Positions 13,868 to 33,343 of a DNA stretch of 64,000 nt are shown here, one piece after another. The DNA is from an uncultured bacterium (GTDB taxonomy: Bacteria > Krumholzibacteriota > Krumholzibacteriia > LZORAL124-64-63), in contig CAVSGO010000006.1 of assembly GCA_963727525.1 (NCBI GenBank), positions 46,906 through 110,905 of the forward strand, read 5' to 3'. Under the pieces are notes generated by a model that saw nothing but the letters and a program-made list of their open reading frames with translations, did not search any database and had not been told where the DNA came from. A program made the translations under genes and the position numbers. How positions within the stretch are numbered: position 1 is the stretch's first letter; the number at the start of each line of letters is the position of its first letter.

Positions 13868-15619
13868 CTATCGCACCTTCACCACCCGTCCCGTCGCGGT
13901 CTCGACACCCGCGGTGAGCCGGTAAAGGTAGACGCCGCTCGCCATCGTGGTGCCGGCACCATTGCGGCCGTCCCAGACGAGCGTGTGCGAGCCCGCGGCG
14001 CCGTCATTCGCGACGAGTGTGCGCACGCGGCGGCCGGCGAGGTCGAAGATGTCGAGGCGGGCGGCGCCGTCGCGCGGCTGGGCGAAGCGGATCGTCGTGG
14101 TGCCGCTGAAGGGCGTCACCGCGCCGAGGAGGCGCAGGCCGCTCTTGCCGGCCACGTCGGGGGCTGGCGTGAGGGTCAGCAGCTGGCCTACGGCGGCGCC
14201 AAGGTCGGGGCGCGGGCCGATCAACTTCACCGTGTCGAGGGCGGGGATGCCCGTGTCGTGCAGGAGCGCGCGCAGCATGGCTGGCGTGAGGGCCTGGCCG
14301 AGGTTGGCCTTGGCGATGCCCTGCAGGCAGAGGGCGCTGCCGGTGATCATGGGCGATGCTCCGGAGGTGCCGCCAAAATCACTGGTGTAGCGCGTGCGCT
14401 CGGAGCCGGCCGTGTAGAGGTCGCCGTAGCCGGTGGTGACGATCGCCGAGCCCCATGCGTGTACGTCCATGCGGCTGCCATAGTTGGTGAACCACTCGGC
14501 CACGCGGCCCGTCGGTGTGCCGGCGCCCACCATGATGGCGCCCGAGTCGCGAACGTTGCGATCGAAGACGCCGTTCCAGGTGGGAGCGTCGAGGTCCTGG
14601 GACCCATTGGCGCCGGCCTCGACGCAGACCACGCCCTGCGACCAGCAGCCGGTCCAGATGACGTCGTAGTTCACCTGGAGCCACTCCATGGGCGTGGCGT
14701 CGCGGCTGGGCGGGAACATCTGCAGCTCGATGAGCCACACGTCGCCCGGTTGCAACTGGTCGACGGCTTCCTGGAAGTAGCTCGGCAGGGTGGGCCACTC
14801 GGCCCCGGGGATGCCGACGGTGCCCCACGCGACGTCGCCCGCGAAGCCGGTGACGCCGAAGCCGTTGTCCTGGGCGAGAATCTCGCCGAGCACCGCCGTA
14901 CCGTGGTCGCGGTAGCCTTCGATGTCGTTGCTGAAGCCGCCCTGATAGAACTGGCGCAGCGTGTCGAAATCCTCGTGGTCCCACACCCAGTCGAGTTCCA
15001 CGTCGACGAAGTGCATGCCCGCGCCGTGGCCGCCGGCCTGGGCCCAGGCGGCCGGAGCGGCCAGGCCCACGGGCGGATCATAGAGGTAGTCCTGCTGGCC
15101 CGTGAAATCGGGCGTGGGCAGCCACGCCGGCAGGAGGGGCTCCGCCACGGGGGCGATGACGGCGGGCTCGCACACCGGTGCCGGGTGCGCGATCTCCACC
15201 GCAGGCAACGCGTTGAGGGCGTTGATCACGTCGGCCAGGTGGGCGCGGCCGGTGGGAAGCTGCACGTCGTACCAGAGAGAGAGGTCGGGGCCGGTCTGGC
15301 CGCTGGCCAGTTCGCCCGCGTGCTTGCGCGCGCGCAGCACGTCAGGATCGCCGGCGAAGGTGCGACGCATGATGAGAGCATCGGCGAGGATATCGTTCAC
15401 GTTGGAGAGATCACGCCCGGCCGTGTCGGCGAAGCGTCCGCTCGCGAGCGACACGCGGGAGCCCTCTACGAATTTCAGGTGGAGCCAGGCGGGGTCGAAG
15501 CGGTCGAGGCCGGCGGTCGTCCAGGTGACGACGGGGCCGACGGGGCGGGTGGCCGTATCGAGAGCCGCGGCGGGCAAGGCCACGAGCAGGGCGAGGGCGA
15601 GAAGCCAGGGATAGCGCAT
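13868..15619 (-). CDS. Secreted subtilisin-like S8 serine peptidase with a C-terminal FlgD-Ig-like/T9SS-like sorting domain (583 aa)
   Basis: Start trimmed to ATG 15619 (MRYPWLLALALLVALPAAA) with GGAGG RBS. Catalytic-triad contexts DHGTAVLGEI and FGGTSGASPMITG. C-terminus ...FSGTTTIRFAQPRDGAARLDIFDLAGRRVRTLV...SGVYLYRLTAGVETATGRVVKVR. Confidence 0.85.
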   Translation of the reverse strand: MRYPWLLALALLVALPAAALDTATRPVGPVVTWTTAGLDRFDPAWLHLKFVEGSRVSLASGRFADTAGRDLSNVNDILADALIMRRTFAGDPDVLRARKHAGELASGQTGPDLSLWYDVQLPTGRAHLADVINALNALPAVEIAHPAPVCEPAVIAPVAEPLLPAWLPTPDFTGQQDYLYDPPVGLAAPAAWAQAGGHGAGMHFVDVELDWVWDHEDFDTLRQFYQGGFSNDIEGYRDHGTAVLGEILAQDNGFGVTGFAGDVAWGTVGIPGAEWPTLPSYFQEAVDQLQPGDVWLIELQMFPPSRDATPMEWLQVNYDVIWTGCWSQGVVCVEAGANGSQDLDAPTWNGVFDRNVRDSGAIMVGAGTPTGRVAEWFTNYGSRMDVHAWGSAIVTTGYGDLYTAGSERTRYTSDFGGTSGASPMITGSALCLQGIAKANLGQALTPAMLRALLHDTGIPALDTVKLIGPRPDLGAAVGQLLTLTPAPDVAGKSGLRLLGAVTPFSGTTTIRFAQPRDGAARLDIFDLAGRRVRTLVANDGAAGSHTLVWDGRNGAGTTMASGVYLYRLTAGVETATGRVVKVR

Positions 15620-15812
15620 CGTGAGCCTCCGGTTCGGGGGGCGGGGGGCAGGCATCGCGCCGGGATTATACCACGACGCGCGCCAGGTGCGCGAAGGAAA
15701 CGAGACGAGGAAGGCATGCGATACGGTGAACACGGCGGACCTGGCCGGTCGTGGTGCCGGCGTCATCGCCGTCGACCTGCAGGTCACGGCGGTGCGCAGG
15801 ATAGCGAATGGG

Positions 15813-16835
15813 CTACCCGATTTGCCCGCTGGCGTGGAGCTGTGCCGCCACACGGTAGAACGTGAAGGACGAGCACGTGGTGCCGCCGCAGACCTCGTCG
15901 AGCAGTCGGTCCTGCTTCAGGGCCACGAGGATGGCCTTGGCGATGTCGAGCGTGCAATCGTCGTCCCACTTCAGCTTCTTGGTCATGGCGCCATAGACCT
16001 TGGTGTCTGCCTGGAGCTGGTGCTTGATCTCGGCCAGTTCGTCGGCGCGGCGCATGGCCTCCATCATGAGGTGCACGGTGGGAACGGCGATCTCGACGGC
16101 GCTCACGGAATCAGGGTCCGACTCGGCCTGACTGCGGAAATAGAACTCTCCGTCGTCGCGGTGCAGGAAGATCTCGTGGAAAGCCTCCTCGCCCTCGAGT
16201 CCGGCGCAGCGGGCGCGATCGACCTGGCCGCCACGCAGCAGCACCTGGGCGAAGATCTCCTGCGTATCGTTCACCATGGCGAGGAGGCCGGTCTGGCCGG
16301 AATTGATGAGCGTCTGCACGACCGTGGGCATGTCGAAGTAACGGAGCTTGCCCGTCAGCTCGCGCCGTCGCGCCTGGCGCCGCATGTGGGTGATCATGTC
16401 CTGCAGACGCCGCGCGAACATGCGGGTCAGCTCCATGCCGTAGTCCGGAATGTCGCGCGCGAGCTGGTCGAACTGGGCGCGCGTGAGCGACCACACCCGG
16501 GCGTACTCGGGCACGCGACCGTCGGAACGGCGCGGGCTGCCGGTGAACAGGGCCATGTCGCCGATCAGCTCGCCGGGCGTGATGTAGGCCACCGGGACGG
16601 GCTCGGGACTCTCGGCGGTCGAACGTACGATCTCGATGGCGCCGTCGAGCAGCAGGTGCACGCAATCCGACGCTTCGCGGGTACGGAACAGGTACTCGCC
16701 CCGCTGGTACTCCTGGATCTGTCCCGCCGCGGCCGTTTCGCGGACCATGGCCTCGGACAGCATCTCGAACAGTTCGGTATTGCGAAGGGCATCAATGATT
16801 TCCTGGAGTTCGCAGGTCACGGTCTTCATCGCCAT
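15813..16835 (-). CDS. Cyclic-nucleotide-binding domain protein fused to a DUF4388 domain (probable start at the second ATG, 16829)
   Basis: cNMP-binding fold (ELFEMLSEAMVRETAAAGQIQEYQRGEYLFRTREASDCVHLLLDGAIEIVR...GELIGDMALF) followed by TVVQTLINSGQTGLLAMVNDTQEIFAQVLLRGGQV (DUF4388-like). A GAGGAG RBS sits 7 nt before the second ATG. Confidence 0.8.
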   Translation of the reverse strand: MAMKTVTCELQEIIDALRNTELFEMLSEAMVRETAAAGQIQEYQRGEYLFRTREASDCVHLLLDGAIEIVRSTAESPEPVPVAYITPGELIGDMALFTGSPRRSDGRVPEYARVWSLTRAQFDQLARDIPDYGMELTRMFARRLQDMITHMRRQARRRELTGKLRYFDMPTVVQTLINSGQTGLLAMVNDTQEIFAQVLLRGGQVDRARCAGLEGEEAFHEIFLHRDDGEFYFRSQAESDPDSVSAVEIAVPTVHLMMEAMRRADELAEIKHQLQADTKVYGAMTKKLKWDDDCTLDIAKAILVALKQDRLLDEVCGGTTCSSFTFYRVAAQLHASGQIG

Positions 16836-17098
16836 ACTCCTCTGCCATGACGTCGGATCCGCCCGCGGGGCGATCGGTTGTGCCGTATGTCCGCCCGGTC
16901 AGGTTCGGCAGCTCGTACGGGCATGTTAGGAATATCGAGCGCGATGGAAACCTCAGTAAGCAATGCCTTTACTCGATTTTCACTAAGGTCCGACGTCGAG
17001 TAGCCGATCGCTGAGGTCATGATTAGCCCGGGGGGCTGGGAGAGGCAGCAGATCGTTATGCCATACGCGCGGGATCTCGAAGCCATGTCGGTGCTGTG

Positions 17099-19087
17099 AT
17101 GGGGACTCCGTCCACCAGCACCCACGAACTCTCGACCGCCGTCGATCCCCAGGCGGCAGCCGACCTCATGGCCGCGATCGAGCGCGTGTTCAAGATCGGT
17201 GTCTATTACCCATCCGGTCACGCCCTCTGCGACCAGGCGGCCGACGTGTTTCTCACCGCGCTGGGCCGTGTGGTCGGCAAGGCGCCCACGTTGCGATTCA
17301 AGCTGAGCCAGGATGTCCTCACCGTGCAGGGGTTCGAACTGGACCCGACGCTCCGCGGCGTGCAGGGCTTCCGCGACCTCCTGAAGGAACTGGGCGTGGC
17401 GGCGGTCGACGTCGACAGCACCGTGGATGCGGCCGACCTGCACGTCTTCGTCACGCAGCTCCTCGCCTATCGCAATCGCGTGAAGGGCACCCATTCCTTC
17501 CAGCAGGTGGTCGTGGAGGGCATGCCGCCCACCATCGGCGTGGAGCATCTCGAATTCATCGCGCGCGAGGTCTACGGCGACGAGAATACCGAGGGCGGCG
17601 ACCCTTCGAACCCCAGCGTCGAGGCGTTGCTCGCCACGCTCGCCCGGCATGGACTCGGTCCCGAGGAGATCGATCGCTGCCGCCGCCTGCTGGAATCCAT
17701 CCCTGGGTACCTCGAGAACCGTGAGGGCGGCGGTGGGGCGCTCCCGCACGTGACCTGGGCCGACGTGGAGGCGCTGCTGGTGCGGGCGGCGCGAGAGCCG
17801 ATCGACCCCGAGAGGTCCGGGGCGACCGGACGGCGCTCGTCGCACGCGAGTCTGGACGCGCTGGCCGCGATCTTCGAGGCCCTGGGCAAGCGCGTGAAGA
17901 CATCGGGATCGCGCGAGGCCATCGACCTGTTGCTCTCGATCTCGCGACGCGACGAGGCGGCGACCGACGCGAACGCCAGCGAGAACGCGCCTTCGCCGGC
18001 GTCGCCCACGCCGCCGCCGAAACCGGCGCCGCCGCGTGAGGCGCAGGAGGCGCCGCTGAGCGCGCTGTACGATCAACTCGCCGCGTGCCGTGCGGCTGCG
18101 CCCGGGACGCCGACGCTGGCAACCGCCAATCGCTGCGAGGACCTCACGATCCTGTTCCAGATGTTCACACGGGATCAGACGCCGCAGGCCCAGCTGCGGA
18201 TCCAGAAGAGGATCCGCGACATCCTGCGCACGCCCCTGCAATCGTCGGAGTGGGACGTCGTGGTCGCCGGTACGCGCCAGCTCGTGGAGCTGGACGACCG
18301 GGAACACCTCACCGGGCCGCTGCGCATGGTGCTCGAGGCGCTGCGCGCCTCGGAATTCGCTTCGACATTGCGATACCTCGCCGACATCGGCCGCGGCCTC
18401 ACGCCCGAACGATTCATGGTGGTGTGGCCCCACCTCGTCAACGAATTGCTCATCGGAGGCCCCGGCGCCGATCCCGAAGTCTTCGCCGAGGTTGGCGCCA
18501 TGGTTTGCCGCCCGACGCATGCGGACATGGAGACGGCGTTGCCGATGCTGGAGTCGCTGGACGCGTTGCGGGATCGTCGCTGCGCGCGTGCGCTCTTCTC
18601 GCCGCCGCCGGTGGAACTGTATCCGGTGTTCGCGGCGCTGCTGCAGTCGCCACATGCCCCGTTCATCGGCAATCTTCTGCTCAGTGGCATGCGTTTCCGA
18701 CCGCTCAACTGGTTGAGCGAATCGGTGCTACCCTTGCTCGGACATTTCCAGCCGCAACATCGGCGATTCCTGGTCGACCTGCTCAATCTCGGCGCCCTCG
18801 ATACGCCGCCCCGCAGCACGGCCGAGATGGCCGGCAAGATCATCGCCGTTGCCCTGCCGCAGCTTCCGCGCTCGCGTCGCAACGAACCGTGGGTGGCGAC
18901 GTCGGTGCGCGCACTCGGAAAGCTCCCGACGCCCCGCGCCGGTCGAGTACTGCGTCAGATCGTCCGGGCCAGGCGGCTCTGGCTGATCCCGGAATGGCCG
19001 GATGCCGCGCGGCAAGCGGCGCGCCAGACGCTCGACCGTTTCCACGCGCTGACTGACGACGAGATCGATGAGACACCGAAAGAGTGA
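17099..19087 (+). CDS. Hypothetical 662-aa protein (no recognisable domain), immediately upstream of and co-directional with the HD-GYP gene
   Basis: Protein-like composition on the + strand, whereas the overlapping 609-aa reverse ORF is Arg-rich junk. Contains a Pro/Ala-rich linker (ENAPSPASPTPPPKPAPPREAQEAP). Stop codon abuts the next gene's start. Confidence 0.7.
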   Translation: MGTPSTSTHELSTAVDPQAAADLMAAIERVFKIGVYYPSGHALCDQAADVFLTALGRVVGKAPTLRFKLSQDVLTVQGFELDPTLRGVQGFRDLLKELGVAAVDVDSTVDAADLHVFVTQLLAYRNRVKGTHSFQQVVVEGMPPTIGVEHLEFIAREVYGDENTEGGDPSNPSVEALLATLARHGLGPEEIDRCRRLLESIPGYLENREGGGGALPHVTWADVEALLVRAAREPIDPERSGATGRRSSHASLDALAAIFEALGKRVKTSGSREAIDLLLSISRRDEAATDANASENAPSPASPTPPPKPAPPREAQEAPLSALYDQLAACRAAAPGTPTLATANRCEDLTILFQMFTRDQTPQAQLRIQKRIRDILRTPLQSSEWDVVVAGTRQLVELDDREHLTGPLRMVLEALRASEFASTLRYLADIGRGLTPERFMVVWPHLVNELLIGGPGADPEVFAEVGAMVCRPTHADMETALPMLESLDALRDRRCARALFSPPPVELYPVFAALLQSPHAPFIGNLLLSGMRFRPLNWLSESVLPLLGHFQPQHRRFLVDLLNLGALDTPPRSTAEMAGKIIAVALPQLPRSRRNEPWVATSVRALGKLPTPRAGRVLRQIVRARRLWLIPEWPDAARQAARQTLDRFHALTDDEIDETPKE

Positions 19088-20476
19088 GTGACCATGCAAG
19101 GAAATCTCGACAAGCTCGTCATCCTGCTCAGCAGCGGCTTCGCGCAGCGTCGCCTCTACTTCGCCGACCACCCGAAGGTGGCCGGCCATAGCCGGGAGTT
19201 CGTCGCTCAGCTCGGTCGTTATCTCGACGAGGTCGATCAGGACGAGATCTTCCTCGGCGTGATCGACGGCAAACTCGTCCACAATGGCCGTTACCTAATC
19301 GGACCGAGCATCGCCGGCGGCCCGCTCATCGAATTCGTGACCCGCATGCACGGTGGTGGACTCGCCTTCACGCGCCTCACCACGGATGCCGAGGTGCGGG
19401 CTCTCTTCTCCATGGCGGCGGAGCTGCGCGAACCGACGTCGGGCCTGACGGAGGCGCGGGCACTGCTGGCATCACGCGGCATCACCACCATTCACGTGGC
19501 GGCACCATACCATGAGGCATCCGGCCTGATGCCGGAGGACGCCCAGGTCTCGTGGCAGGGCAAGGATCAGGGCGGCGGGGGGCTCGAATCGCCGTTGCTC
19601 GTCTATCAGGCGCTCTTCGATGTCGTCACGGCCGCCCACGGCAATGCGTCGCTGAGTCGTGCGCTGGATATCGAGAGCACGCGTTCGGTGAGCGAGTATC
19701 TCCTGCACAGCACTCGTGCCAACTTCACCGACATCATGCATCTGATGCATTACCCGGACTTCGATTCTTACACGGTGGGGCATTCGGTACGCGTGGCCAC
19801 GCTGGCCGTGTTCGCGGGCGACCGGCTCGGATTGTCCGACGAGCACCTCCTCGATCTGGGCACCGCCGGACTGCTGCACGATGTCGGCAAGAGCAAGATC
19901 CCCGACGAGATCCTCTACAAGCCCGGCCGCCTCGACGCCGGCGAATTCGCGATCATGCAATCCCACGCGGCCATCGGCGCGGAGATCCTGCTCGAGCACA
20001 AGACCGCCACGCAGCTCGACGTCGCCGCGGCCTGGGGACACCACATCCGTCACGACGGCGGCGGTTACCCCAAGACGCCACCGTGGGGCGCGCGCAACAA
20101 GATCACGGCGCTCTTGCAGATCTGCGACGTCTTCGAGGCGTTGACGGCGGTACGTCCCTACAAGGCGCCGATGACACCACGCACCGCGTTCGAGATCATG
20201 CTGAAAGACCAGGGCGCCTTCGATCCTGGTCTGCTGGCCGTATTCGTGAACACGCTGGGTCTCTACCCGCCCGGAAACGTCGTACGCCTCAACGACGGCA
20301 CCTACGGCAGCGTTGTCGCCGCCACCGCCGACATCGAACGTCCACGGGTTCGCTTGACGCACGACCCCGAGGGCAAGCCGCTCCCCGACGAGAGCCGGGT
20401 CGAGTGCGACCTCACGAGCACGCCGGAGTGCAGCGTGGCCGAGCTCGTCCTCGAGCCGGACACGGTGCTGGCCTGA
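19088..20476 (+). CDS. HD-GYP domain phosphohydrolase (c-di-GMP phosphodiesterase family) with an N-terminal DUF3391-like region
   Basis: HSVRVATLAVFAGDRLGL...LGTAGLLHDVGKSKIP...FAIMQSHAAIGAEIL...HHIRHDGGGYPK (HD ... GYP signature). GTG 19088 or ATG 19094 as start. Confidence 0.85.
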   Translation: MTMQGNLDKLVILLSSGFAQRRLYFADHPKVAGHSREFVAQLGRYLDEVDQDEIFLGVIDGKLVHNGRYLIGPSIAGGPLIEFVTRMHGGGLAFTRLTTDAEVRALFSMAAELREPTSGLTEARALLASRGITTIHVAAPYHEASGLMPEDAQVSWQGKDQGGGGLESPLLVYQALFDVVTAAHGNASLSRALDIESTRSVSEYLLHSTRANFTDIMHLMHYPDFDSYTVGHSVRVATLAVFAGDRLGLSDEHLLDLGTAGLLHDVGKSKIPDEILYKPGRLDAGEFAIMQSHAAIGAEILLEHKTATQLDVAAAWGHHIRHDGGGYPKTPPWGARNKITALLQICDVFEALTAVRPYKAPMTPRTAFEIMLKDQGAFDPGLLAVFVNTLGLYPPGNVVRLNDGTYGSVVAATADIERPRVRLTHDPEGKPLPDESRVECDLTSTPECSVAELVLEPDTVLA

Positions 20477-20576
20477 GTCGCGCCTTGCTGGGCTCGCACG
20501 CGCCGTGGTAGAGTGAGTCGACGCGGCCGATGCCCGGCCGTCCCGTCAACGGCGTCTATCTCGAGAGCCAGGATCG

Positions 20577-21464
20577 TTGGTCATGGTTCGCGTTTCGCGG
20601 GTATTCCTCGTCGCTCTCGCGGGCTTCGTTCTGGCTGCGGCCCCAGCCGTCGCGGCGGTGTCGGCGGCCGATGCCGACTCGGTGGACATCGCATTCGTAC
20701 TCATACCCGCGGGATCCTACGTGAGCGGTAGCCCGGGCGACGAGTGGGGAAGCCGTGTCGACGAGAAACAGCACCGCGTCACGTTGAGCCACGCGTTCTA
20801 CCTCTCGACGACGGAGATCACCCAGACAATGTGGCGCGCGGTCATGGGCAACAACCCGAGCTATCTCTACGATTGCCCGCGATGCCCCGTGGAAGGCCTG
20901 AGCTGGTTCGACGCGATCGCCTTCTGCAACGCATTCTCGCAGCAAGCCGGTTTGGCGCCGGTCTACGCGATCCGCGACACACTCGTCACGTGGGACCGCA
21001 CTGCCGACGGCTACCGTCTGCCGACCGAGGCGGAATGGGAGTATGCGTGTCGTGCCGGCAGCGCCACGGCGTTCCACACGGGCGACTGCCTCGGTACCGA
21101 CAAGGCGAACTACAAGGGCTATGAACCGCAGGAAGGCTGCGCCAGCGGTCTCTGGCGCGGCCAGACGATCGACGTCGGGTCGTTTGCCGCCAATAACTGG
21201 GAGCTCTGCGACATGCACGGAAACGTCGGGGAATGGTGCTGGGACCGCTGGGACTTCTATCCGGACACCGCCACGGTGGATCCAGCCGGACCGGACCGCG
21301 GCGACGAGCGGGTCATCCGCGGCGGCAACTTCGATCGGCCGGCCTGGGACTGCCGTTCGGCCGCGCGCACCATGGCCCGTCCCCGGGCGTGGTTCCGGGA
21401 TGTGGGCGTACGTCTCGCGCGTACGGCCTTCACGGCGGCAGACATCCAGGGGGGCAGCCCATGA
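20577..21464 (+). CDS. Secreted formylglycine-generating-enzyme (FGE/SUMF1) family protein
   Basis: Signal peptide VSRVFLVALAGFVLAAAPAVAAV. YRLPTEAEWEYACRAGSATAFHTGD...HGNVGEWCWDRW...RVIRGGNFD (FGE-sulfatase fold motifs). Stop overlaps the sulfatase start (ATGA). Confidence 0.85.
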   Translation: MVMVRVSRVFLVALAGFVLAAAPAVAAVSAADADSVDIAFVLIPAGSYVSGSPGDEWGSRVDEKQHRVTLSHAFYLSTTEITQTMWRAVMGNNPSYLYDCPRCPVEGLSWFDAIAFCNAFSQQAGLAPVYAIRDTLVTWDRTADGYRLPTEAEWEYACRAGSATAFHTGDCLGTDKANYKGYEPQEGCASGLWRGQTIDVGSFAANNWELCDMHGNVGEWCWDRWDFYPDTATVDPAGPDRGDERVIRGGNFDRPAWDCRSAARTMARPRAWFRDVGVRLARTAFTAADIQGGSP

Positions 21465-22855
21465 GCGACGTCTCACGCCGCGACGCGTTGAAACTGATCG
21501 GCGCCGGCGCCGCCGCGCTGACGCTGCCTCGGCTGCTCGGATGCGGCGCCAAAGATATTGCGGGGCGACGCCCCAACGTCGTCGTCATCCTCGCGGACGA
21601 CCTGCGCTACGACGCCATCGGCTGCGCCGGAGATCGGCGCTTGCAGACGCCGAACATCGACCGCCTCGCCGGCGAAGGCGTGCGCTTCACGAACGCATTC
21701 GTGACCACGAGTCTCTGCAGCCCGTCGCGCGCGGCCTTTCTCACCGGTTGCTACGCCCATACCCAGGGCGTCTTCTACAACGAGATGCGCGATCCCCTGC
21801 CGTCGGTGCCCATGTTTCCCGAGCTGCTGCAACGCGCGGGCTACGAGACGGCGTTCGTCGGCAAGTGGCATATGCTGCGACGCGCCACGCCGAGACGCGG
21901 CTTCGATCACTGGGTGGCGTTCAATGGTCAGGGCGCGTACTTCCGGAATACCCTGAACGTCGACGGCGACTGGGTCTACTCCGAGAACTATATCACCGAC
22001 GAGCTCACGTCCCGCGCCGTGAACTACCTGGTGCGGGACCACGAGAAGCCGTTCTTCCTCATGCTCAGCCACAAGGCCGTGCACGCGCCATTCGTGCCGG
22101 CGCCGCGCCATGCGAATCGCTACGGCGACGTGACCTACACGTCCCGGGACGACAGTCGCGACCGGCTCGATGCCAAACCCGCCTGGGGTGGACGTGCCGC
22201 GGACGAGAACGTCGCTTCCGAGATGCGGAATTACCACCGCACGGTGCTGGGCATCGACGAGAGCGTGGGCACGATACGTGCCACCCTGCAGGAGCAGGGC
22301 GTGCTCGATGACACACTGGTGGTCTTTACCAGCGACAACGGCTACCTGTTCGGCGAGCACGGCGGACTCATGGACAAGCGTGCGGCCTACGAGCCGTCGA
22401 TCCGTATCCCGCTGATCCTGCGCTACCCGCCCCAGGGGGGCGCCGGAACGATCTGCGACGGGCTGGCGTTGAACATCGATCTCGCTCCCACCCTGGTCGA
22501 GCTGGCGGGCGCGCCGGCTTCCCCGACCATACAGGGCCAGAGCCTGATTCCGCTACTGCGCGGGGAGCCGGGTCGCGATGCGTTCCTCTACGAGTACTTT
22601 CATGAACTGGGCACCGTGCCCACGGCGCTGGCGGTTCGTACGCGCGAATGGAAGTACGTCACGTATCCCGACGACCCGGACCTGCCGTCCGAACTGTACG
22701 ACCTGCGGGCCGACCCCGGCGAGCTACGCAACCTCGCCGACCAGGCGACGCTCTCCGAAAAGCAGACCGAACTCGAGGAACGCCTGGCCGCCCTGCTCCG
22801 TGCGACGAACTTCAGAATGCCGGGACCACCGCGCCGCTCGCTGAGTCAGGGGTGA
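21461..22855 (+). CDS. Cys-type sulfatase with a twin-arginine (Tat) signal peptide (464 aa)
   Basis: MSDVSRRDALKLIGAGAAALTLPRLLG (Tat RR motif). PNVVVILADDLRYD...TTSLCSPSRAAFLTGCY (C-x-P-x-R formylglycine motif). GKWH. C-terminal sulfatase fold. Confidence 0.9.
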   Translation: MSDVSRRDALKLIGAGAAALTLPRLLGCGAKDIAGRRPNVVVILADDLRYDAIGCAGDRRLQTPNIDRLAGEGVRFTNAFVTTSLCSPSRAAFLTGCYAHTQGVFYNEMRDPLPSVPMFPELLQRAGYETAFVGKWHMLRRATPRRGFDHWVAFNGQGAYFRNTLNVDGDWVYSENYITDELTSRAVNYLVRDHEKPFFLMLSHKAVHAPFVPAPRHANRYGDVTYTSRDDSRDRLDAKPAWGGRAADENVASEMRNYHRTVLGIDESVGTIRATLQEQGVLDDTLVVFTSDNGYLFGEHGGLMDKRAAYEPSIRIPLILRYPPQGGAGTICDGLALNIDLAPTLVELAGAPASPTIQGQSLIPLLRGEPGRDAFLYEYFHELGTVPTALAVRTREWKYVTYPDDPDLPSELYDLRADPGELRNLADQATLSEKQTELEERLAALLRATNFRMPGPPRRSLSQG

Positions 22856-22857
22856 TC

Positions 22858-24084
22858 ATGAACGCGCAACCATTCACGCTCCTCGTCAAGCCGGCTGGAG
22901 CCGCCTGCAACCTGCATTGCGCCTACTGCTTCTACTTGCCAACGGCACAGCTCCATGCGCACGAAACCCACCGCTGCATGACCCCGCTGATCCTGCGCCG
23001 ACTCGTCACCGGCTACCTGGCCACGCGTCAACCGGTGTACGGCTTCTGCTGGCAGGGGGGCGAACCGACGCTGATGGGCCTCGATTTCTACGTGCAGGCC
23101 ACGAAGCTGCAGGAGCGCCTCGGCCGCACCGGTCAGCTCGTGAGCAACAGCCTGCAGACCAACGCGCTGCTGATCGACGACGCTTGGGCCGAACACCTCG
23201 CGCGCTATCGCTTCCTCGTGGGGTGCAGCCTCGATGGCCCCGCGGCGATGCACGATCGGTACCGCACGGCCGCCAATGGCGAGGCGAGCCACGCGCGCGT
23301 GCTGCACGGGATACGAACGTTGCAACGCCACGGCGTGGCCGTGAATGTGCTCGTGCTGGTGAGTCAGGCCAACGTGCGCCGTGCCGGCGAGGTGTTCGGC
23401 TACTTGCGCGATCTCGGACTCCTGCACCAGCAGTACATCCCATGTCTCGACGTCGACGACGATGGGGCGCCGCGGCCGTATGCGATCGGCAGCGAGGAAT
23501 GGGGCGCGTTCCTCGACGCGCTCTTCGTGGCCTGGGCGGCCGACGGGGAACGCGCCGCGATCCGCAATCTCGACGCTCTCGTGGGCCAGCTTCTGGGCGA
23601 TCCCCCCGCGGAATGCACGCTGGGGCAGGACTGTCGACAATACGTGGTGGTGGAGCACAACGGCGCCATCTATCCCTGCGATTTCTATGTGCGCGAGGAC
23701 CTGTGCCTGGGCAACGTGATGGACGTAGCGTGGGACACCGTGCTGGCGTCACCGGCGCATCGCCGGTTCGGGGCGACCAAGGCTGCCTGGCCCGAGGCGT
23801 GCGCCACCTGCGATTGCCTCGACCTCTGCGCCGGTGGCTGTCCGCGGCACCGCACGGGCAGTGCGGCCGAACCCAGCCGGCTTTGTGCGGGTTTGCGCGG
23901 ATTCCTGCGCGTGCGGCGGGAAGAATTGACGCGGATCGCGGCCCGGCGCGCCGGCGAACGCGCCGCCCGCCCCTTCGCGGTCATGACCGGTGCCAGAGCA
24001 GGCGGCGCGGCCGTCCAGTCCCGCAACGAACCGTGCCCGTGCGGCAGCGGGCGCAAGTTCAAGAAGTGCTGCGGCGGCGGTTGA
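22858..24084 (+). CDS. Anaerobic sulfatase-maturating enzyme (radical-SAM/SPASM) with a C-terminal SEC-C zinc-binding motif
   Basis: ATG 22858 (MNAQPFTLLVKPAGAACNLHCAYCFY = CxxxCxxC radical-SAM cluster). SPASM-like Cys clusters (CTLGQDCRQY...YPCDF...CATCDCLDLCAGGCP). Terminal CPCGSGRKFKKCCGGG (SEC-C motif). Confidence 0.85.
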   Translation: MNAQPFTLLVKPAGAACNLHCAYCFYLPTAQLHAHETHRCMTPLILRRLVTGYLATRQPVYGFCWQGGEPTLMGLDFYVQATKLQERLGRTGQLVSNSLQTNALLIDDAWAEHLARYRFLVGCSLDGPAAMHDRYRTAANGEASHARVLHGIRTLQRHGVAVNVLVLVSQANVRRAGEVFGYLRDLGLLHQQYIPCLDVDDDGAPRPYAIGSEEWGAFLDALFVAWAADGERAAIRNLDALVGQLLGDPPAECTLGQDCRQYVVVEHNGAIYPCDFYVREDLCLGNVMDVAWDTVLASPAHRRFGATKAAWPEACATCDCLDLCAGGCPRHRTGSAAEPSRLCAGLRGFLRVRREELTRIAARRAGERAARPFAVMTGARAGGAAVQSRNEPCPCGSGRKFKKCCGGG

Positions 24085-24115
24085 GCACCACCGCCGCCGC
24101 ACCACCGTACGCGCG

Positions 24116-27100
24116 TCACCGCACCAACATCATCTTGTGCAACATCGTCTCGCCCGTCGCTTCGAGGCGGCAGAAGTAGAGACCGCTCGCCGTCTCGCGC
24201 CCGGATCCGTCCCGTCCATCCCAGCGCACCTCGTGCCGGCCCGCCGGCAACACGTCGGCGACCAGCCTGCGCACCCGTACGCCGCGCACGTCGTAGATTT
24301 CGAGCTGTATGGGGCCGGGTGCGGCGAGGTCGAACGCGATCACCGTCTGGGGGTTGAAGGGATTCGGGGCGTTGCCCACGACCCGGGTGACGGTGGGGAG
24401 CGTCGCCGGCGCCGCCGTGGCGGTGGCGCTGCCGACCAGCAGGTTCAGTCCCCACGTCTGGAACGCGCCGAGCGCGCCGAAGGCGGTGTCGGCCACGAAG
24501 ATGGTCCAGTCGCCCTGAGGGTCCGCGCCCAGGAAGTCATCGAGTGATCCGGGACCGTCGACCACGAGGTTGGCGGGCCAGTTGCCCACGATGTCGTCGT
24601 TGATGCTGCCCGAGTGGTCGTGCAGCGTGACCACCGTACCCTGCGGATTCGTGAGCGTGACGACGAGCTGGCCGATCGAGGGATGCGTGATGGCGATGTC
24701 CACCGAAACGCCGAGCAGCGCGCCGGTGTCGCCGACGTTGATGTTGCTGGTCATGCCGGCGGGGTTGTTGTCGGGAATCGGCAGGTTCACGCTGGCTGTC
24801 TCGTGCACGGCGACCACGGGGAAGAGCGTGAAGTCCACGCCGGAGAGCGTCTGTCCGTCAGCCAGCGCCACGGTGCGAGTCGCTGGCGCGTAGCCGTCGC
24901 GGCTCACGGTCATCGCGTAGTTGCTCGCCCACAGACCGGCGATCGTGTAGGCCCCATCGGAACCGGTGTTGGCGCTGTGGAAGGGGCCCGCCGTGACGGT
25001 GATGCCGGACGCGTCACCGCCGTCCTCCAGGCTCACCACCCCGGAGATCGACGAGGTGCCGGGCGACTCGGGCGCCGTCAGGTAGGCCAGCGCGTTTTCA
25101 GTGAGCAAGCGGGCCTGATCCGGGTTCAAGTAGCCGAAGTCGAAGGGGAGGAAGACGATCTGTCCCGCGTCCGGCCCGGAGTTGTCGTCATAGAGGAGCA
25201 CGCCGGCGGAATCGATGCTGAACACGGAATGCATGATCACGAGCGCGTCGGCCGTCGGCAGTGCGAGGTCGCACGCTCCCACGTCGAAACCGGCATCCAC
25301 GCCGGTTTCGATGTCGTCGGGAAGGCGGTGCGGCCGGTTCAGGAACAGGTGGTGATCCTCATCCGGATTGGGCACGAGCAACGTGCCCGAATCACCCCAC
25401 CAGTCCGCGGTGTGCAGGACCGTGCGGGTGAAGGCGTCGCTGAACGGAGGACTCTGGTAGGCGCGGTACACGATATCGCCGCCCTCGATCATCAGACGGC
25501 CACCGCTCTGTACCCAGGCCAGCAGGCGGTCGCGCAACTCCGGATTCTGCAGGGGCTGTTGATTGTTGCCACACGAGATCACCACGGCATCGTGTCCGGG
25601 CAGACTGTTCTGGCCGACATCGGCCGCGTCCACCTGATCGACGACATAACCGGCATCGATCAGCCACTGCGCGATGTCCGCGGCCGAGGTGGCGGGTTCG
25701 ACGGGAACACCGCGGGGGGAGCCCGATGGCTCCTGCTCTCGCGCCGCGTAGTTGAAGAGGTTGTCGATCACGAGCACGCGGGCCAGGGCGGCGACCACGG
25801 TAAAGGTGAATGGGCCGGCGGTGGTCGTGTTGGGGATGGCGGCCACATCCTGTGCCGCCAGGCGGTACGTCACGGTGTCGCCCACCTGCAGCGATCCGGC
25901 CGCGAGCGGGAAGTCCACACCGTAGCCATCACCGTCGGGCGCCAGCGCGACGGGCCCTTGCTGCGCGCCACCGTTCACTGCGAACGTGAGCGTGACGTCG
26001 GCGATGCCGATGTTGTCGGATGCCAGCGCGAAGACCCGCGGCGGCCACGTTGCCAGGGTCTGGTCGATGAGCGGCGCGTGGAAGAGTTGCGGCGCGATGG
26101 TATCGACCCCGATACCGAAGCCGTACACGCCGGTGGGCGCGTTCAGCGGTGCCCGGATGGTGATGCCCTGTGCGTCGCTCGCCTCGAGGTAGTAGTCGAC
26201 GATGCCACCCGCCTGACCAGGGATCTCGCCCGTGTAGGCGTCGCCGCCCGCGGGGGTCAGTGGCGCCGTTTGCCAGGGGCCGCCATCCACGCGCCACACC
26301 AGGGAGAGCGTGGCGCCGGCCAGACCCTGGCGGTCGGTGATCGTCGCCGTGACGACGTATGGTCCCACAGTGTCCTCGGTGTCCACGAGCGGCGTGTGCG
26401 CGATGGAGGGGCCCCAGTAGGTGACGGCCGCGTAGGCGTCGACGATGCCCCAGCCGTAGTCGTTGTCGGGGTTGTCCGTGCGGTCGGCGGTGGCCTTGAG
26501 CGCGTCGCGCACCTGGGCCGGTGTGAGCGAGGGCACCCGCTCCAGAATGAGGGCGGCCACGCCCGCCACGAGCGGTGTCGCGAAACTGGTGCCGTCCACG
26601 GCAGAGTAGCCCGTCGCGCCGTCCCAGTAGGCCACGATGTTACTCACGCCCTGGGCGCTGAGGTCGGGCTTGATGCGGCCGTCGTAGGTGGGACCGGGCG
26701 AGCTGAACGAGGCGATGTTGCCGTCGAGGTCCACCGCCGCGAGGGCCAGCACGTTGTGGCCATCGGCAGGGGGCAGGATGTGGGGGAAGTCGGAATTCTG
26801 CCGCTCGTTGCCGGCGCTATTGAAGACGCAGACGCCCAGATCGAACGCCATGTCGGCCGCGATGGTGGTGACGGCCGTGTCGCCGTCGAGGTCGCTGAAG
26901 TCGTACCAGTAGTAGTAGCCCAGACTGCTGGTGACGACGTCCACGCCGAGCGACTCCTCCCACTCGATGCCCGCGACCCAGTTGTCCTCCTCGATGGGCG
27001 TCTCGCTCTCGATGTCCTCGGTCTTGGCGAGGATCGCCGAGGCGCCATAGGCCGTGCCGATCAGCTCGCCGTTCTTGAAGCCCATGACGAGTGAGAGCGT

Positions 27101-27886
27101 CTCGGTGCCGTGCCGGGCCTGCTGGAAGTAGTCGCCGGGTTCCTGCGCCACGATGGTGTCGTTGTCGACGAAGTCGTACTGGGCGATGACGTCGATGTTC
27201 TGCAACGCCATGTGGGTGCGGTTGAAGCCGGAGTCGAGCATACCCACGATCACGCCGTGTCCGCTGAGGCCCAGCTCGTGGGCGGGCGGCACGTCGATCT
27301 GCTCGAGGGTGGCCAGACTGGAGCCATAGCTGAGTTGCCAGCGATCTCCGGACGCGGCCCTGGCCGCATCGTTGCGGGCGGCAGCCCGGGCCTCGTCGGC
27401 TGGCGACACGGCCAGCTCGGGGCGGACGAACTTCGCCACCAGGTCCACCCTGGTCACGAAGGGCAAGCGCGCGATGGCGGCGATCTGGTCCGGCCTGGCG
27501 TTCACGCTGATGGCATCGAGCCAGCGCGACGTCCGGCGTAGGGCCGCGCCGGTGGCCGTGACGGCGCGCACGTAGGCGGCGTCCACGGGCAGGTCGTGGG
27601 TGTCCACGAGGCGGGACCCCGCCGGTTTCACCCTGGCGCGACGGGCCAGCGCGCGCGCCGTCAGGCGCTGCTCCTCGCGGTCGAGGGCGGCCGGCAGGTC
27701 GGATGCGCTCACGCCCTTGTCGGTGAACGAGACCCAGATGGCCCAGGTGCCGTCGGCCTGACGCAGGGGCGCTGCGGGATCGGTGAGCGCGTGGGCGAGG
27801 CGCGGCGAAACTTCGGCGCGCGCCGCGCTCGGCACGACCAGGACCACGGTCACGGCGAGGATCAGCGTCATCAGGAAACGGCGCAT
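24116..27886 (-). CDS. Large secreted subtilisin-like S8 peptidase with a proprotein-convertase-type P domain and a C-terminal FlgD-Ig-like/T9SS-like sorting domain (1256 aa)
   Basis: AAGGAG RBS. Signal peptide MRRFLMTLILAVTVVLVVPSAARA. S8 contexts HGTETLSLV and GTSFATPLVAGVAALI. P-domain-like QLVVTLTNPQGTVVTLHDH. C-terminus NAPNPFNPQTVIAFDLAAPGPIQLEIYDVRGVRVRRL...SGLYFCRLEATGETMLHKMMLVR. Confidence 0.9.
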   Translation of the reverse strand: MRRFLMTLILAVTVVLVVPSAARAEVSPRLAHALTDPAAPLRQADGTWAIWVSFTDKGVSASDLPAALDREEQRLTARALARRARVKPAGSRLVDTHDLPVDAAYVRAVTATGAALRRTSRWLDAISVNARPDQIAAIARLPFVTRVDLVAKFVRPELAVSPADEARAAARNDAARAASGDRWQLSYGSSLATLEQIDVPPAHELGLSGHGVIVGMLDSGFNRTHMALQNIDVIAQYDFVDNDTIVAQEPGDYFQQARHGTETLSLVMGFKNGELIGTAYGASAILAKTEDIESETPIEEDNWVAGIEWEESLGVDVVTSSLGYYYWYDFSDLDGDTAVTTIAADMAFDLGVCVFNSAGNERQNSDFPHILPPADGHNVLALAAVDLDGNIASFSSPGPTYDGRIKPDLSAQGVSNIVAYWDGATGYSAVDGTSFATPLVAGVAALILERVPSLTPAQVRDALKATADRTDNPDNDYGWGIVDAYAAVTYWGPSIAHTPLVDTEDTVGPYVVTATITDRQGLAGATLSLVWRVDGGPWQTAPLTPAGGDAYTGEIPGQAGGIVDYYLEASDAQGITIRAPLNAPTGVYGFGIGVDTIAPQLFHAPLIDQTLATWPPRVFALASDNIGIADVTLTFAVNGGAQQGPVALAPDGDGYGVDFPLAAGSLQVGDTVTYRLAAQDVAAIPNTTTAGPFTFTVVAALARVLVIDNLFNYAAREQEPSGSPRGVPVEPATSAADIAQWLIDAGYVVDQVDAADVGQNSLPGHDAVVISCGNNQQPLQNPELRDRLLAWVQSGGRLMIEGGDIVYRAYQSPPFSDAFTRTVLHTADWWGDSGTLLVPNPDEDHHLFLNRPHRLPDDIETGVDAGFDVGACDLALPTADALVIMHSVFSIDSAGVLLYDDNSGPDAGQIVFLPFDFGYLNPDQARLLTENALAYLTAPESPGTSSISGVVSLEDGGDASGITVTAGPFHSANTGSDGAYTIAGLWASNYAMTVSRDGYAPATRTVALADGQTLSGVDFTLFPVVAVHETASVNLPIPDNNPAGMTSNINVGDTGALLGVSVDIAITHPSIGQLVVTLTNPQGTVVTLHDHSGSINDDIVGNWPANLVVDGPGSLDDFLGADPQGDWTIFVADTAFGALGAFQTWGLNLLVGSATATAAPATLPTVTRVVGNAPNPFNPQTVIAFDLAAPGPIQLEIYDVRGVRVRRLVADVLPAGRHEVRWDGRDGSGRETASGLYFCRLEATGETMLHKMMLVR

Positions 27887-27908
27887 GGGGGGGCTCCTTG
27901 TCGGGCGC

Positions 27909-27936
27909 GGGCTCCGCCGTGGCGACGACGGAGCCC
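27909..27936 (-). terminator. Hairpin GGGCTCCG-N12-CGGAGCCC downstream of the HAF-repeat gene (no clear U-tract)
   Basis: 8-bp GC stem between the convergently oriented stop (27969) and the next start (27886) on the same strand. Confidence 0.25.
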
Positions 27937-27968
27937 GCTGGGGTGGAACGCGCGTGTGGAAGAGCGAC

Positions 27969-29342
27969 CTAGCGGACCAGCATCATCTTGCTGGCGCGTA
28001 CGGCCGTATCCGTCACCATCTGCAGCATGTAGGTGCCCGACGGCACGGCGCGGCCGGTCGTGTCGGTGCCCGGCCACAACAGCGCATGCTCGCCGGCGTC
28101 AAAAAGCTCGTTGGCTAGCTCGGTGACCTTGTGCCCGTGCATGTCGAACACGGTGAGGCGCACGTTCTGCGGCTGCGCGAGGCTGAACTTCACGTTCGTC
28201 ATCGGGTTGAACGGGTTCGGCGACGCGCCGAGCAGAGCCGTGGCCGGCTGCGGGGTGTCCTGGGGCTGGGTCTGGCCGTGGTCCTCGGTGCTTACCGAAT
28301 TGTCGAGGCGCGCCATGAAGGCGAGATTGAGGAAGCCGCCTTCCTCCACGTAAGACCCGGTGATCGTGTTGCCGTCGCCGGAAATACTCATCGCCCTCGT
28401 AAGCGTCAGACCATCGGCGCCCACCACGTTGTGCCCGGCGAAGTAGTCGGATAGGGTCTGCAGACCCTCGTCCACGGTCCAGATGATCGCCGTGACCGAG
28501 CTGAAGAACGGGTCGCCGCTGAAACCCACGACCTTGCCGTCGTCCGAAATGCTCAGGCCGGTGCTGCCGTAGGGCTCGTCACCCGGCAGCGTGCCGATCG
28601 GCACCACACCGACGACGTTGTCCCAGTAGAACGCCTCGTTGTTGATGACGCCCGTCATCTTGGTGCCGTCGCTGCTCACGGCATAGACCTCACCCGGCAA
28701 GTCGGGGTCGGCGAGCAACTGAGGGCCGCTGACGTCATCCGTCCAGAAGGCCGCTCGGCGGAAGCCCATGGTTGGATGTTCGTCGAAGCCCACCGTCACC
28801 GTGCCGTCGTCGGAAATATCGGTGGCGCGACTGCTGTTGCCCGAGGAGCCCAGGTTGACGGTGCCGACACCCTGGGTCCACTTGAAGGCCACGGCGTCGC
28901 AGCTGATCCAGCCGAGGCCCACGCCGATCGAACCGTCGAAGTTCAGCGCGTAGCCTGAGCTGAGATCGGAACCGCACGGGGCGCCACCGGGCATTTCGTC
29001 CATGAAGACGAAGCCGCCGGCGGGCGTCCAGTAAGCGGCAGCGTTGAGCCCGTCACTGTTCGGGCGCGTGAAGCACAGCGTGGAACCGTCGCCGGAGATG
29101 GTGCCGCCGCTCGTGGAGAGGCCGCCGGTGTCGATCGTCATGAAGCCGTCGGCCTCGGTCCAGTAAAAGTAGTCGTTCCAGGCGCCGCCCATGGCCTGGC
29201 CGTCGTACGACAGGTAGAGGGTGCCGCCAAAGAACGATCCAGGCAGGTCGGTCAACGGGATGAACGTACCGGTCGCGAACGCTCCGGTCGCGCCGATCGC
29301 GATGAGCGCGACCACACTCAGGATCATGAGCAGTTTCTTCAT
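27969..29342 (-). CDS. Secreted HAF-family extracellular-repeat protein with a C-terminal FlgD-Ig-like/T9SS-like sorting domain (457 aa)
   Basis: GGAGG RBS. Signal peptide MKKLLMILSVVALIAIGATGAFA. Repeated ...A(V/I)S.DG(T/K).(T/V)G... units (ATDISDDGTVTVGF, VYAVSSDGTKMTGV, LSISDDGKVVGF, MSISGDGNTITGS) as in TIGR02913 HAF repeats. C-terminus ASPNPFNPMTNVKFSLAQPQNVRLTVFDMHGHKV...GTYMLQMVTDTAVRASKMMLVR. Confidence 0.8.
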   Translation of the reverse strand: MKKLLMILSVVALIAIGATGAFATGTFIPLTDLPGSFFGGTLYLSYDGQAMGGAWNDYFYWTEADGFMTIDTGGLSTSGGTISGDGSTLCFTRPNSDGLNAAAYWTPAGGFVFMDEMPGGAPCGSDLSSGYALNFDGSIGVGLGWISCDAVAFKWTQGVGTVNLGSSGNSSRATDISDDGTVTVGFDEHPTMGFRRAAFWTDDVSGPQLLADPDLPGEVYAVSSDGTKMTGVINNEAFYWDNVVGVVPIGTLPGDEPYGSTGLSISDDGKVVGFSGDPFFSSVTAIIWTVDEGLQTLSDYFAGHNVVGADGLTLTRAMSISGDGNTITGSYVEEGGFLNLAFMARLDNSVSTEDHGQTQPQDTPQPATALLGASPNPFNPMTNVKFSLAQPQNVRLTVFDMHGHKVTELANELFDAGEHALLWPGTDTTGRAVPSGTYMLQMVTDTAVRASKMMLVR

Positions 29343-29488
29343 GATTGCCTCCAGGGGACATGGCTGGGATTGCCTTGGACACGGATGTGCGATTGGCCGA
29401 AGATCTTGCCAAGTGCCGCAGATCCTAGCAAAATCGGATGGGTCCTAGCAGATTTTCCGGATGGCGTTGACGTTTATGATTTAACAGA

Positions 29489-29524
29489 ATTGGCCGGCGT
29501 CACGGGGTCGCGACGCCGGCCAAT
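29489..29524 (-). terminator. Rho-independent terminator candidate for speA: perfect 13-bp stem ATTGGCCGGCGTC-N10-GACGCCGGCCAAT followed (on the minus strand) by TCTGTTAAATC
   Basis: Lies 9 nt downstream of the speA stop (29533) on the coding strand. GC-rich stem with a moderately U-rich tail. Confidence 0.55.
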
Positions 29525-29532
29525 GGGGCGGC

Positions 29533-31437
<1,905 letters not shown>

Positions 31438-33308: not shown

Positions 33309-33343
33309 GGCACCATATGCGTCGCGGAAGGAAAGGCGTCCGC

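Follow-up and report, generated by a model that had tools for sequence, protein, structure and literature searches.

A sulfatase operon of an uncultured bacterium with a SecA-type metal-binding tail on its anaerobic maturase and a predicted exported FGE-fold protein that probably does not act as a second maturation system

It is poorly understood how a maturase in the cytoplasm gets to sulfatases before these fold or are exported, and one operon from an uncultured Krumholzibacteriota bacterium raises this question in a particular form. Within the analysed window, a stretch of 64,000 nucleotides of contig CAVSGO010000006.1, three co-directional genes on the + strand (positions 20577-24084, read from the open reading frames (ORFs)) encode, in this order, a protein with the fold of the formylglycine-generating enzyme (FGE), a formylglycine-dependent sulfatase and an anaerobic sulfatase-maturating enzyme (anSME) of the radical S-adenosylmethionine (SAM) type, the latter ending in a SEC-C motif. 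Does this operon contain two routes to formylglycine or only one, and what is the SEC-C tail for? The reading favoured here is that there is one real maturation system, in which the anSME makes formylglycine and is docked on the ribosome or on SecB by its SecA-type tail, and that the FGE-fold protein is an exported partner other than an FGE. Taken as a whole, this reading is given an even chance of being right.

The gene identities assigned in a preliminary description of this DNA were borne out at Pfam level (PF03781, PF00884 and Radical_SAM/SPASM/SEC-C, respectively), and the same is true for the tight coupling of the three genes. The TGA stop of the FGE-fold gene is overlapped by the ATG of the sulfatase gene (ATGA at 21461-21464), and the anSME gene starts 2 nucleotides (nt) past the sulfatase stop. 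Likewise, the CSPSR motif of the sulfatase as well as the CxxxCxxC and SPASM Cys clusters of the anSME were confirmed. Besides these operon copies, no further sulfatase, FGE-fold protein, anSME or SEC-C motif was found in the 64-kb window, and a scan of positions 20300-24300 for promoters and terminators gave nothing above shuffled expectation.

Judged from its sequence, the third gene product is an anSME, since TIGR03942 is by far its best-scoring NCBIfam family (the next anSME model reaches 230 bits), its residues 5-352 match the Clostridium perfringens enzyme anSMEcpe (PDB 4k37, 2.6e-58), its three cluster motifs and the equivalent of the catalytic base Asp275 are invariant, and its gene adjoins that of a CSPSR sulfatase. 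In an alignment of 56 homologues, C253, C259, C274, D275, C315, C318, C324, C328 and C343 do not vary and align with their counterparts in anSMEcpe. Homologues from the same clade carry the NCBI name 'anaerobic sulfatase maturase'. With anSMEcpe (PDB 4k36-4k39) the protein has the radical-SAM core, the SPASM domain, the CX3CX2C motif, eight auxiliary Cys and the catalytic Asp in common. The clostridial enzyme, however, comprises 370 aa and ends after the core, whereas in the window anSME the core is followed by a linker of about 20 residues, which is not conserved, and by a SecA-type metal-binding domain (MBD) of 20 residues. The AlphaFold2 (AF2) model, built from the 56-sequence alignment, has a mean pLDDT of 92.5 and is confident up to about residue 370, with a long C-terminal helix spanning residues 343-370.

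A zinc-binding motif of SEC-C type had already been suspected at the end of this protein. The corresponding Pfam scan places SEC-C (PF02810) on residues 389-406 of 408 with 38.1 bits (gathering score 20.4, E 1.4e-9), and the underlying CxCxSx6C[CH] motif can be read directly as CPCGSGRKFKKCC. Identity amounts to 16 of 20 residues with the SecA peptide of H. influenzae known from a crystal structure with SecB (1ozb_I) and to 17 of 20 with the C-terminal MBD of YchJ (9l6b_C). Across the 56 homologues, C393, P394, C395, G396, S397, G398, K400 and C404 are invariant, so that the metal ligands in CxCxSx6CC stay fixed together with the conserved Ser, next to a linker that is not conserved. In the AF2 model, pLDDT falls below 50 at residues 376-384 and recovers to 61-80 over the last 20 residues, while the stretch between the last cluster Cys and the first tail Cys in the homologues has a median length of 46 residues (range 33-60) and a net positive charge; as modelled, the C-terminus appears as a small separate unit on a flexible tether. 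Because Pfam score, identity to the 1ozb and YchJ peptides, invariant ligands, unconserved linker and AF2 layout agree, the tail is, as far as primary structure and modelling can tell, a genuine SecA-type MBD. The same linker-plus-MBD layout is known from the C-terminal tail of SecA (10.1101/613315), and both this tail and YecA/AscA display RN[DE]PCPCGSG[KR]K[YF]K.C[CH]G at the extreme C-terminus past a poorly conserved linker, as the anSME does. Unlike in SecA and YecA/AscA, the MBD is here fused to a radical-SAM protein-modifying enzyme instead of a translocation ATPase or chaperone, and the client encoded next to it is a putative substrate of the twin-arginine translocation (Tat) pathway, not of Sec.

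On an anSME, such a tail had been regarded as unusual. Among the closest homologues (the best 120 among 5.8 billion proteins with precomputed domains, 46-56% identity), however, 117 of 120 carry SEC-C, and their C-termini read ...GRNDPCPCGSG[RK]K[FY]KKCCG, preceded by linkers that cannot be aligned. When the tail-less core (residues 1-360) was searched against 1.84 billion 50%-identity representatives, 16,002 matches were obtained at E<=1e-3, of which 1,163 also reached E<=1e-30. The tail motif ends 42 of the 150 best cluster representatives from this search, corresponding to about 30% (42/138) of the sequences analysed, namely the representatives of at least 350 aa and the window core. The tail is thus near-universal in the clade of the window anSME and patchy at depth. 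Since it is a common, undescribed feature of anSMEs, the claim of rarity had to be given up, and the window anSME is unremarkable within a large anSME variant with a SecA-type tail, which is conserved but functionally uncharacterised. Tailed anSMEs occur in metagenome-assembled genomes (MAGs) labelled Victivallales, Verrucomicrobiota, Rhodospirillaceae, Acidobacteriota, Pseudomonadota, Calditrichota and delta-proteobacteria, and named protein matches additionally include Kiritimatiellia, KSB3 and Desulfobacterales. A literature search, thin on subscription journals, retrieved no description of SEC-C on anSMEs or radical-SAM maturases, nothing on a coupling of anSMEs to Tat or signal peptides, and nothing relevant for SecA-like MBDs with methionine aminopeptidase.

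A genome scan with the complete anSME protein was dominated by the KFKKCCGG pattern of the tail, with anSME relatives at 12 of 80 loci and unrelated SEC-C proteins at most others; its taxon list is biased towards tail carriers, and no frequency can be derived from it. The pattern alone drew dozens of unrelated genes with a near-identical terminal SEC-C motif (loci L017-L084) from Planctomycetota, Acidobacteriota, Verrucomicrobiota, Pseudomonadota, Bacillota and candidate phyla.

Could the tail be a generic small zinc knuckle without a specific partner, either an aid to stability or solubility or a leftover of domain shuffling, and irrelevant to maturation? The occurrence of SEC-C tails on many unrelated families, including the dozens of non-anSME loci just mentioned, would suit such a view, as would the functions counted in the literature for proteins of this kind, at least 18 in number (10.1101/2020.07.21.215244), and the fact that characterised anSMEs work without a tail. 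Nonetheless, about 20 tail residues are kept near-perfectly in homologues that are only 46-56% identical elsewhere, and this directly beside a linker that is not conserved. Because of this pattern, which implies strong purifying selection on the tail, presumably for a specific interaction surface, a generic knuckle is considered quite improbable.

What this surface might contact is best discussed together with the presumed client. The sulfatase combines a PF00884 domain with the C/S-x-P-x-R motif. Its CSPSR sequence occupies residues 86-90, about 60 residues beyond the signal peptide, and hence emerges early in translation. The closest solved sulfatase is the N-acetylglucosamine (GlcNAc)-6-O-sulfatase BT4656 of B. 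thetaiotaomicron (5g2v, 2.6e-82), and the nearest solved relatives also include a mucin-desulfating sulfatase. BT4656 and the window sulfatase have the SGSH_C domain and the active-site motif in common, and the window enzyme differs by a putative twin-arginine signal plus lipobox. The Tat signal proposed in the preliminary description holds in part: SRRDALK is present and TIGR01409 scores 17.4 (cutoff 16.7), but Pfam TAT_signal, at 18.8, stays under its cutoff of 22.7. Both [ST]RR[DEQ][AF]L[KR] and L-x-G-C are kept in the sulfatase orthologues of five other loci (L003, L004, L085, L086 and L087). Substrates of the Tat pathway leave the cytoplasm already folded.

In the proposed course of events, the sulfatase precursor, a GlcNAc-6-sulfatase-like S1 protein with twin-arginine signal and lipobox, would be translated in the cytoplasm, where the anSME would act on the still unfolded chain and, independently of O2, oxidise the Cys86 in CSPSR to formylglycine. 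The SecA-type MBD on its flexible, basic linker of about 20 residues would dock the anSME on the ribosome (alternatively on SecB, if the cell has it), and the docked enzyme could reach the N-terminal motif on emergence, ahead of folding. Once folded and matured, the sulfatase would be exported via Tat and lipid-anchored. The FGE-fold protein would leave the cytoplasm separately by means of its own signal peptide and act as a sulfatase partner other than an FGE, e.g. as a lectin-like binder of a substrate or partner. What the sequences show are the gene identities and motifs, a tail that is conserved, FGE catalytic residues that have been lost, and a gene pair and trio that recur; every binding and activity step of the scheme is inferred, above all the docking on ribosome or SecB and the part played by the FGE-fold protein.

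For the docking step, published work on such domains provides the model. The MBD of SecA binds SecB and ribosomes and also Zn or Fe, and in the chaperone YecA/AscA a near-identical domain confers binding of SecB and of ribosomes (10.1101/613315, 10.1101/2020.07.21.215244). Moreover, fusions of SecA-like MBDs have been proposed as a 'toolkit' by which new functions, again at least 18, are coupled to the Sec machinery (10.1101/613315, 10.1101/2020.07.21.215244). A coupling of the anSME tail to ribosome or SecB, as suggested in the preliminary description, plausibly fits these reports. Since formylglycine formation needs an unfolded chain and CSPSR lies near the N-terminus, the tail can be read as a dock for early capture of the motif; by analogy to the SecA and YecA/AscA domains, docking would be its most economical reading, with the SecB version applying to organisms which export sulfatases by Sec. 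As the client at the window locus is a putative Tat substrate, the ribosome version fits better there. The coupling idea is thereby widened to the whole tailed clade and shifted to ribosome docking, a form which seems plausible and is unpublished as far as the literature search went.

The same domain chemistry also allows a different function. According to a second interpretation, the tail is a redox or metal sensor, in which a Cys4 site with Zn or Fe becomes oxidised or is stripped of its metal under O2, reactive oxygen species (ROS) or iron limitation and switches off the anSME, for example by disulfide-linked dimerisation or by auto-inhibition of this O2-labile enzyme with its three [4Fe-4S] clusters. 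SecA-like MBDs do bind iron in vivo, and the SecA tail auto-inhibits SecA until it is bound (10.1101/613315). YchJ undergoes ROS-induced dimerisation via a Cys149 disulfide (PMC13377102), and this Cys would fall within the C-terminal SEC-C-type stretch that is identical to the anSME tail in 17 of 20 positions. A patchy phylogenetic distribution would also suit an optional regulatory add-on. A pure sensor, however, would have no need for the features kept beyond the metal ligands, i.e. RND-P, GSG and the basic K/R-K-F/Y-K-K, which are those of the SecA peptide contacting SecB. Additionally, there is no sign that the tail touches the anSME core, and the linker is predicted with low confidence in the AF2 model. 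On balance, a sensor function appears rather unlikely, and docking is retained as the preferred explanation of the tail.

Extended beyond the window, docking leads to the tentative proposal, possible but at present short of probable, that MBD-tailed anSMEs form a class of their own, so far undescribed, of radical-SAM maturases which work co-translationally while docked on the ribosome (or on SecB). If this is true, the tail sets the anSME at the exit tunnel, where the N-terminal C/S-x-P-x-R motif would be oxidised ahead of folding or export of the sulfatase. These anSMEs would then be the first radical-SAM enzymes shown to act on nascent chains, and it would be explained how one anSME can serve hundreds of sulfatases in genomes of the Planctomycetes-Verrucomicrobia-Chlamydiae (PVC) type. 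In any case, a strictly conserved SecA-type module on a large share of environmental anSMEs offers a concrete docking hypothesis, and the tail matters in practice where active sulfatases of uncultured bacteria rich in these enzymes are to be produced in another host.

There remains the first gene of the operon. In the preliminary description, its product had been taken as an O2-dependent FGE next to the O2-independent anSME, i.e. as one of two working formylglycine systems which together allow maturation under oxic and anoxic conditions. At first sight this is supported by the strong PF03781 match and by the translational coupling of the gene to that of the sulfatase. Its relationships, however, point elsewhere. 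The best PDB sequence match is TvpA of Treponema denticola (2y3c, 2e-27), while human FGE follows at about 1e-15. With the AF2 model (pLDDT 88.6), TvpA is also the best fold match (TMq 0.74, 30% identity), whereas FGE structures are found at TMq 0.62-0.66 and 22-25% identity, alongside PvdO, CarF, pFGE, PorK and EgtB. NCBIfam returns only sub-threshold matches, to GldK, PvdO and EgtB. The closest relative in both sequence and fold is thus a non-enzymatic binding protein, and PvdO, PorK and EgtB possess the same Pfam domain yet are not FGEs.

Even more telling is the region of the active site. The human loop GGSYMC336HRSYC341YRYRC346AAR aligns (HMMER, MAFFT) to GGNFDRPAWDC---RSAAR in the window protein, in which Cys336 is replaced by Arg, three residues are deleted and a single Cys is left. 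In all 19 aligned orthologues (45-61% identity), the Cys336 position is likewise occupied by other residues (Arg, Glu, Asp and others), and the 3-residue deletion and the single loop Cys recur. Trp299, numbered here from the chain offsets of the PDB alignment and part of GNAWEW in human FGE, is Gly in the window protein (GNVGEW); GNVSEW or GNVAEW is found in orthologues and TvpA, and none of the 19 orthologues retains Trp299, which has given way to Gly, Ser or Ala. Hence, in 20 of 20 aligned sequences the Cu(I)-binding pair Cys336/Cys341 is gone (at most one Cys), the loop is shortened by 3 residues and Trp299 is replaced. With the canonical copper FGEs (human SUMF1; S. coelicolor, 2q17; T. 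curvata, 6s07), the protein therefore shares the Pfam domain and the overall fold but lacks Cys336, has no more than one loop Cys and no Trp299, and carries the loop deletion.

Location is a further obstacle. The signal peptide named in the preliminary description is indeed recognisable as a hydrophobic N-terminus. Of the 19 aligned orthologues, 17 have an equivalent one, and the remaining two, P0273 and P0310, are without the N-terminal region there. With its apparent Tat signal, the sulfatase should be folded by the time of its export, and an FGE-fold protein that is itself exported would not encounter it in the unfolded state; the predicted site of the FGE-fold protein is one where its presumed substrate would no longer be accessible to an FGE. 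In strictly anaerobic Kiritimatiellales, moreover, PF03781 genes are abundant, which was called paradoxical by the authors, who doubted a role as FGE and considered another function probable (PMC6388578).

A residual argument for an aerobic maturase comes from other loci. The overlapping pair of FGE-fold gene and sulfatase gene recurs in L003, L085, L086, L087 and L088. In three of these the pair, overlapping or near-abutting, has no adjoining anSME gene (L085 5001-7270, L086 5001-7255 and L087 5001-7227), and cytochrome oxidase genes lie near in L086, an arrangement which would suit an O2-dependent enzyme. The CPxCP motif together with the one loop Cys could in principle also make a relocated metal site. 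Given the loss of the Cu(I) pair throughout, the TvpA-like relationships and the separate location, two working systems are nevertheless considered very improbable, and the FGE-fold protein is probably not a second maturation system. With it, the conclusion drawn earlier on sulfatase activity under both oxic and anoxic conditions falls.

The recurrence of the pair instead marks the FGE-fold protein as a conserved companion of this subfamily of sulfatases, with or without an anSME downstream. The paired sulfatase in L085, L086 and L087 is of the Tat/lipobox type with SGSH_C, and the full trio with a SEC-C anSME is found again in L003/L004 and L088, where the anSME gene lies downstream of a CSPSR sulfatase gene (L003, L004 and L088), as it does here. 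As to the nature of this partner, pFGE (SUMF2) is an inactive FGE paralogue that associates with sulfatases. TvpA (T. denticola variable protein, 2y3c) and pFGE (1y4j) both have an FGE/C-type-lectin-like fold without the catalytic Cys pair, as is the case here, and with low certainty the FGE-fold protein could, like these, be a non-catalytic lectin-like partner acting outside the cytoplasm. It differs from TvpA in being a fixed sulfatase partner gene, in having the CPxCP motif and in the absence of a template/variable repeat. For annotation, it follows that a PF03781 gene beside a sulfatase gene is no evidence of an aerobic maturation route; an exported FGE-fold subfamily without the Cys pair, a conserved sulfatase partner, may stand there instead.

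Owing to the TvpA match, a variable protein of a diversity-generating retroelement (DGR) was also considered and rejected, as neither a template/variable repeat nor a reverse transcriptase was present. Repeats in positions 14000-31000 were restricted to GC-rich ones of 30-39 nt at chance level, and no reverse transcriptase was found among the neighbour genes scanned with Pfam.

Several observations weigh against the favoured reading of one maturation system with a docked anSME. The TIGR03942 score of the anSME, 345.7 bits, is 3.7 bits short of the equivalog cutoff of 349.45. Most tailed anSMEs are not encoded beside a sulfatase (L001, L002, L005, L006, L008-L014 and L089), although stand-alone genes would be expected if one anSME serves many sulfatases. 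As the distribution of the tail is patchy on the deep anSME tree, the tail would be dispensable for anSME function as such, and anSMEcpe with its 370 aa has none. On this tree (p-distance/UPGMA, crude at 35-45% identity), the tail trait requires 34 state changes compared to 36 for shuffled labels, and its 'patchy' distribution is weak evidence for repeated gain and loss. The sulfatase is, by its signal, a putative Tat and not a Sec substrate, for which a coupling to SecB is not obviously useful. Finally, the FGE-fold protein has retained the CPxCP motif and one loop Cys, which may make up a non-canonical active site. The motif, CPDCP in most cases, is kept in the close orthologues P0274-P0289, P0299 and P0310, where human FGE has RPDHP, and could be a disulfide or a metal site.

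The coordinates of all features of the operon are compiled in Table 1. For the FGE-fold gene, the public gene call (P0272) uses the ATG at 20583; a TTG at 20577 is an alternative start.

Table 1 Features of the sulfatase operon (positions in the window)
Feature	Position	Strand	Basis
FGE-fold (PF03781) protein, predicted to be exported, 293 aa, not a canonical FGE	20583..21464	+	Pfam 1.4e-43; 2y3c
N-terminal signal peptide of the FGE-fold protein, MVRVSRVFLVALAGFVLAAAPAVAAVSAAD (approximate)	20583..20672	+	read directly; low pLDDT
C-P-R-C-P motif of the FGE-fold protein	20874..20888	+	alignment with close orthologues
Degenerate 'catalytic loop' of the FGE-fold protein, IRGGNFDRPAWDCRSAAR	21315..21368	+	alignment to human FGE
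S1 formylglycine-dependent sulfatase, GlcNAc-6-sulfatase-like, 464 aa	21461..22855	+	PF00884 2.7e-65, SGSH_C 3e-32
Twin-arginine signal (SRRDALK) ending in lipobox-like LLGC	21461..21544	+	TIGR01409; orthologue conservation
CSPSR formylglycine motif, Cys86 being the residue to be oxidised	21716..21730	+	read directly; aligns to 5g2v active-site motif
anSME of the radical SAM/SPASM type ending in SEC-C, 408 aa	22858..24084	+	Pfam Radical_SAM, SPASM, SEC-C; TIGR03942; 4k37
CX3CX2C radical-SAM cluster motif CNLHCAYC (C17, C21, C24)	22906..22929	+	read directly; invariant in 56 homologues
SPASM region with eight auxiliary-cluster Cys and Asp275 catalytic base equivalent	23614..23886	+	alignment
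Variable low-confidence linker from last core helix to tail	23968..24021	+	pLDDT, alignment
SEC-C / SecA-type metal-binding domain, RNEPCPCGSGRKFKKCCG	24022..24075	+	PF02810

The surroundings of the operon and of its relatives provide some further observations. In two of the three loci with a pair but no adjoining anSME gene (L085, L086, L087), the pair adjoins a cluster of TonB-dependent receptor, thiamine pyrophosphokinase and SSF transporter. Behind the SEC-C anSME gene of the other trio loci comes a PilZ-domain gene in convergent orientation (L003 7286-7975, L004 2960-3649 and L088 6251-6931, all on the - strand), with a GGDEF-EAL gene located nearby, where the window has an HD-domain gene upstream instead; a loose link to cyclic di-GMP signalling is conceivable. 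The HD-domain gene in question encodes an HD_5/HD-domain protein (19088-20476, +), located just upstream of the sulfatase operon and abutting stop-to-start a 663-aa ORF without Pfam match (17096-19087, +), and the two may form a signalling pair.

Downstream of the operon and convergent to it lies the gene of a 1256-aa S8 peptidase with a proprotein-convertase P-domain and a FlgD_ig tail (24116-27886, -). According to Pfam, a C-terminal FlgD_ig domain (PF13860) ends two further secreted proteins as well (27969-29342, - and 13868-15853, -), so that the trio comprises this peptidase, one S8-like protein and one protein without assigned function. One of the three additionally gives a weak Por_Secre_tail match, and their FlgD_ig ends look like a common sorting or anchoring tail. 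Further downstream, an ABC-F protein points to the candidate phylum Krumholzibacteriota as the probable origin of the window, since the best of its relatives with a name, at 64-68% identity, belong to Krumholzibacteria/Krumholzibacteriota MAGs. Its 704-aa ORF (31518-33632, -) is shortened to 596 aa in the public gene call (P0392).

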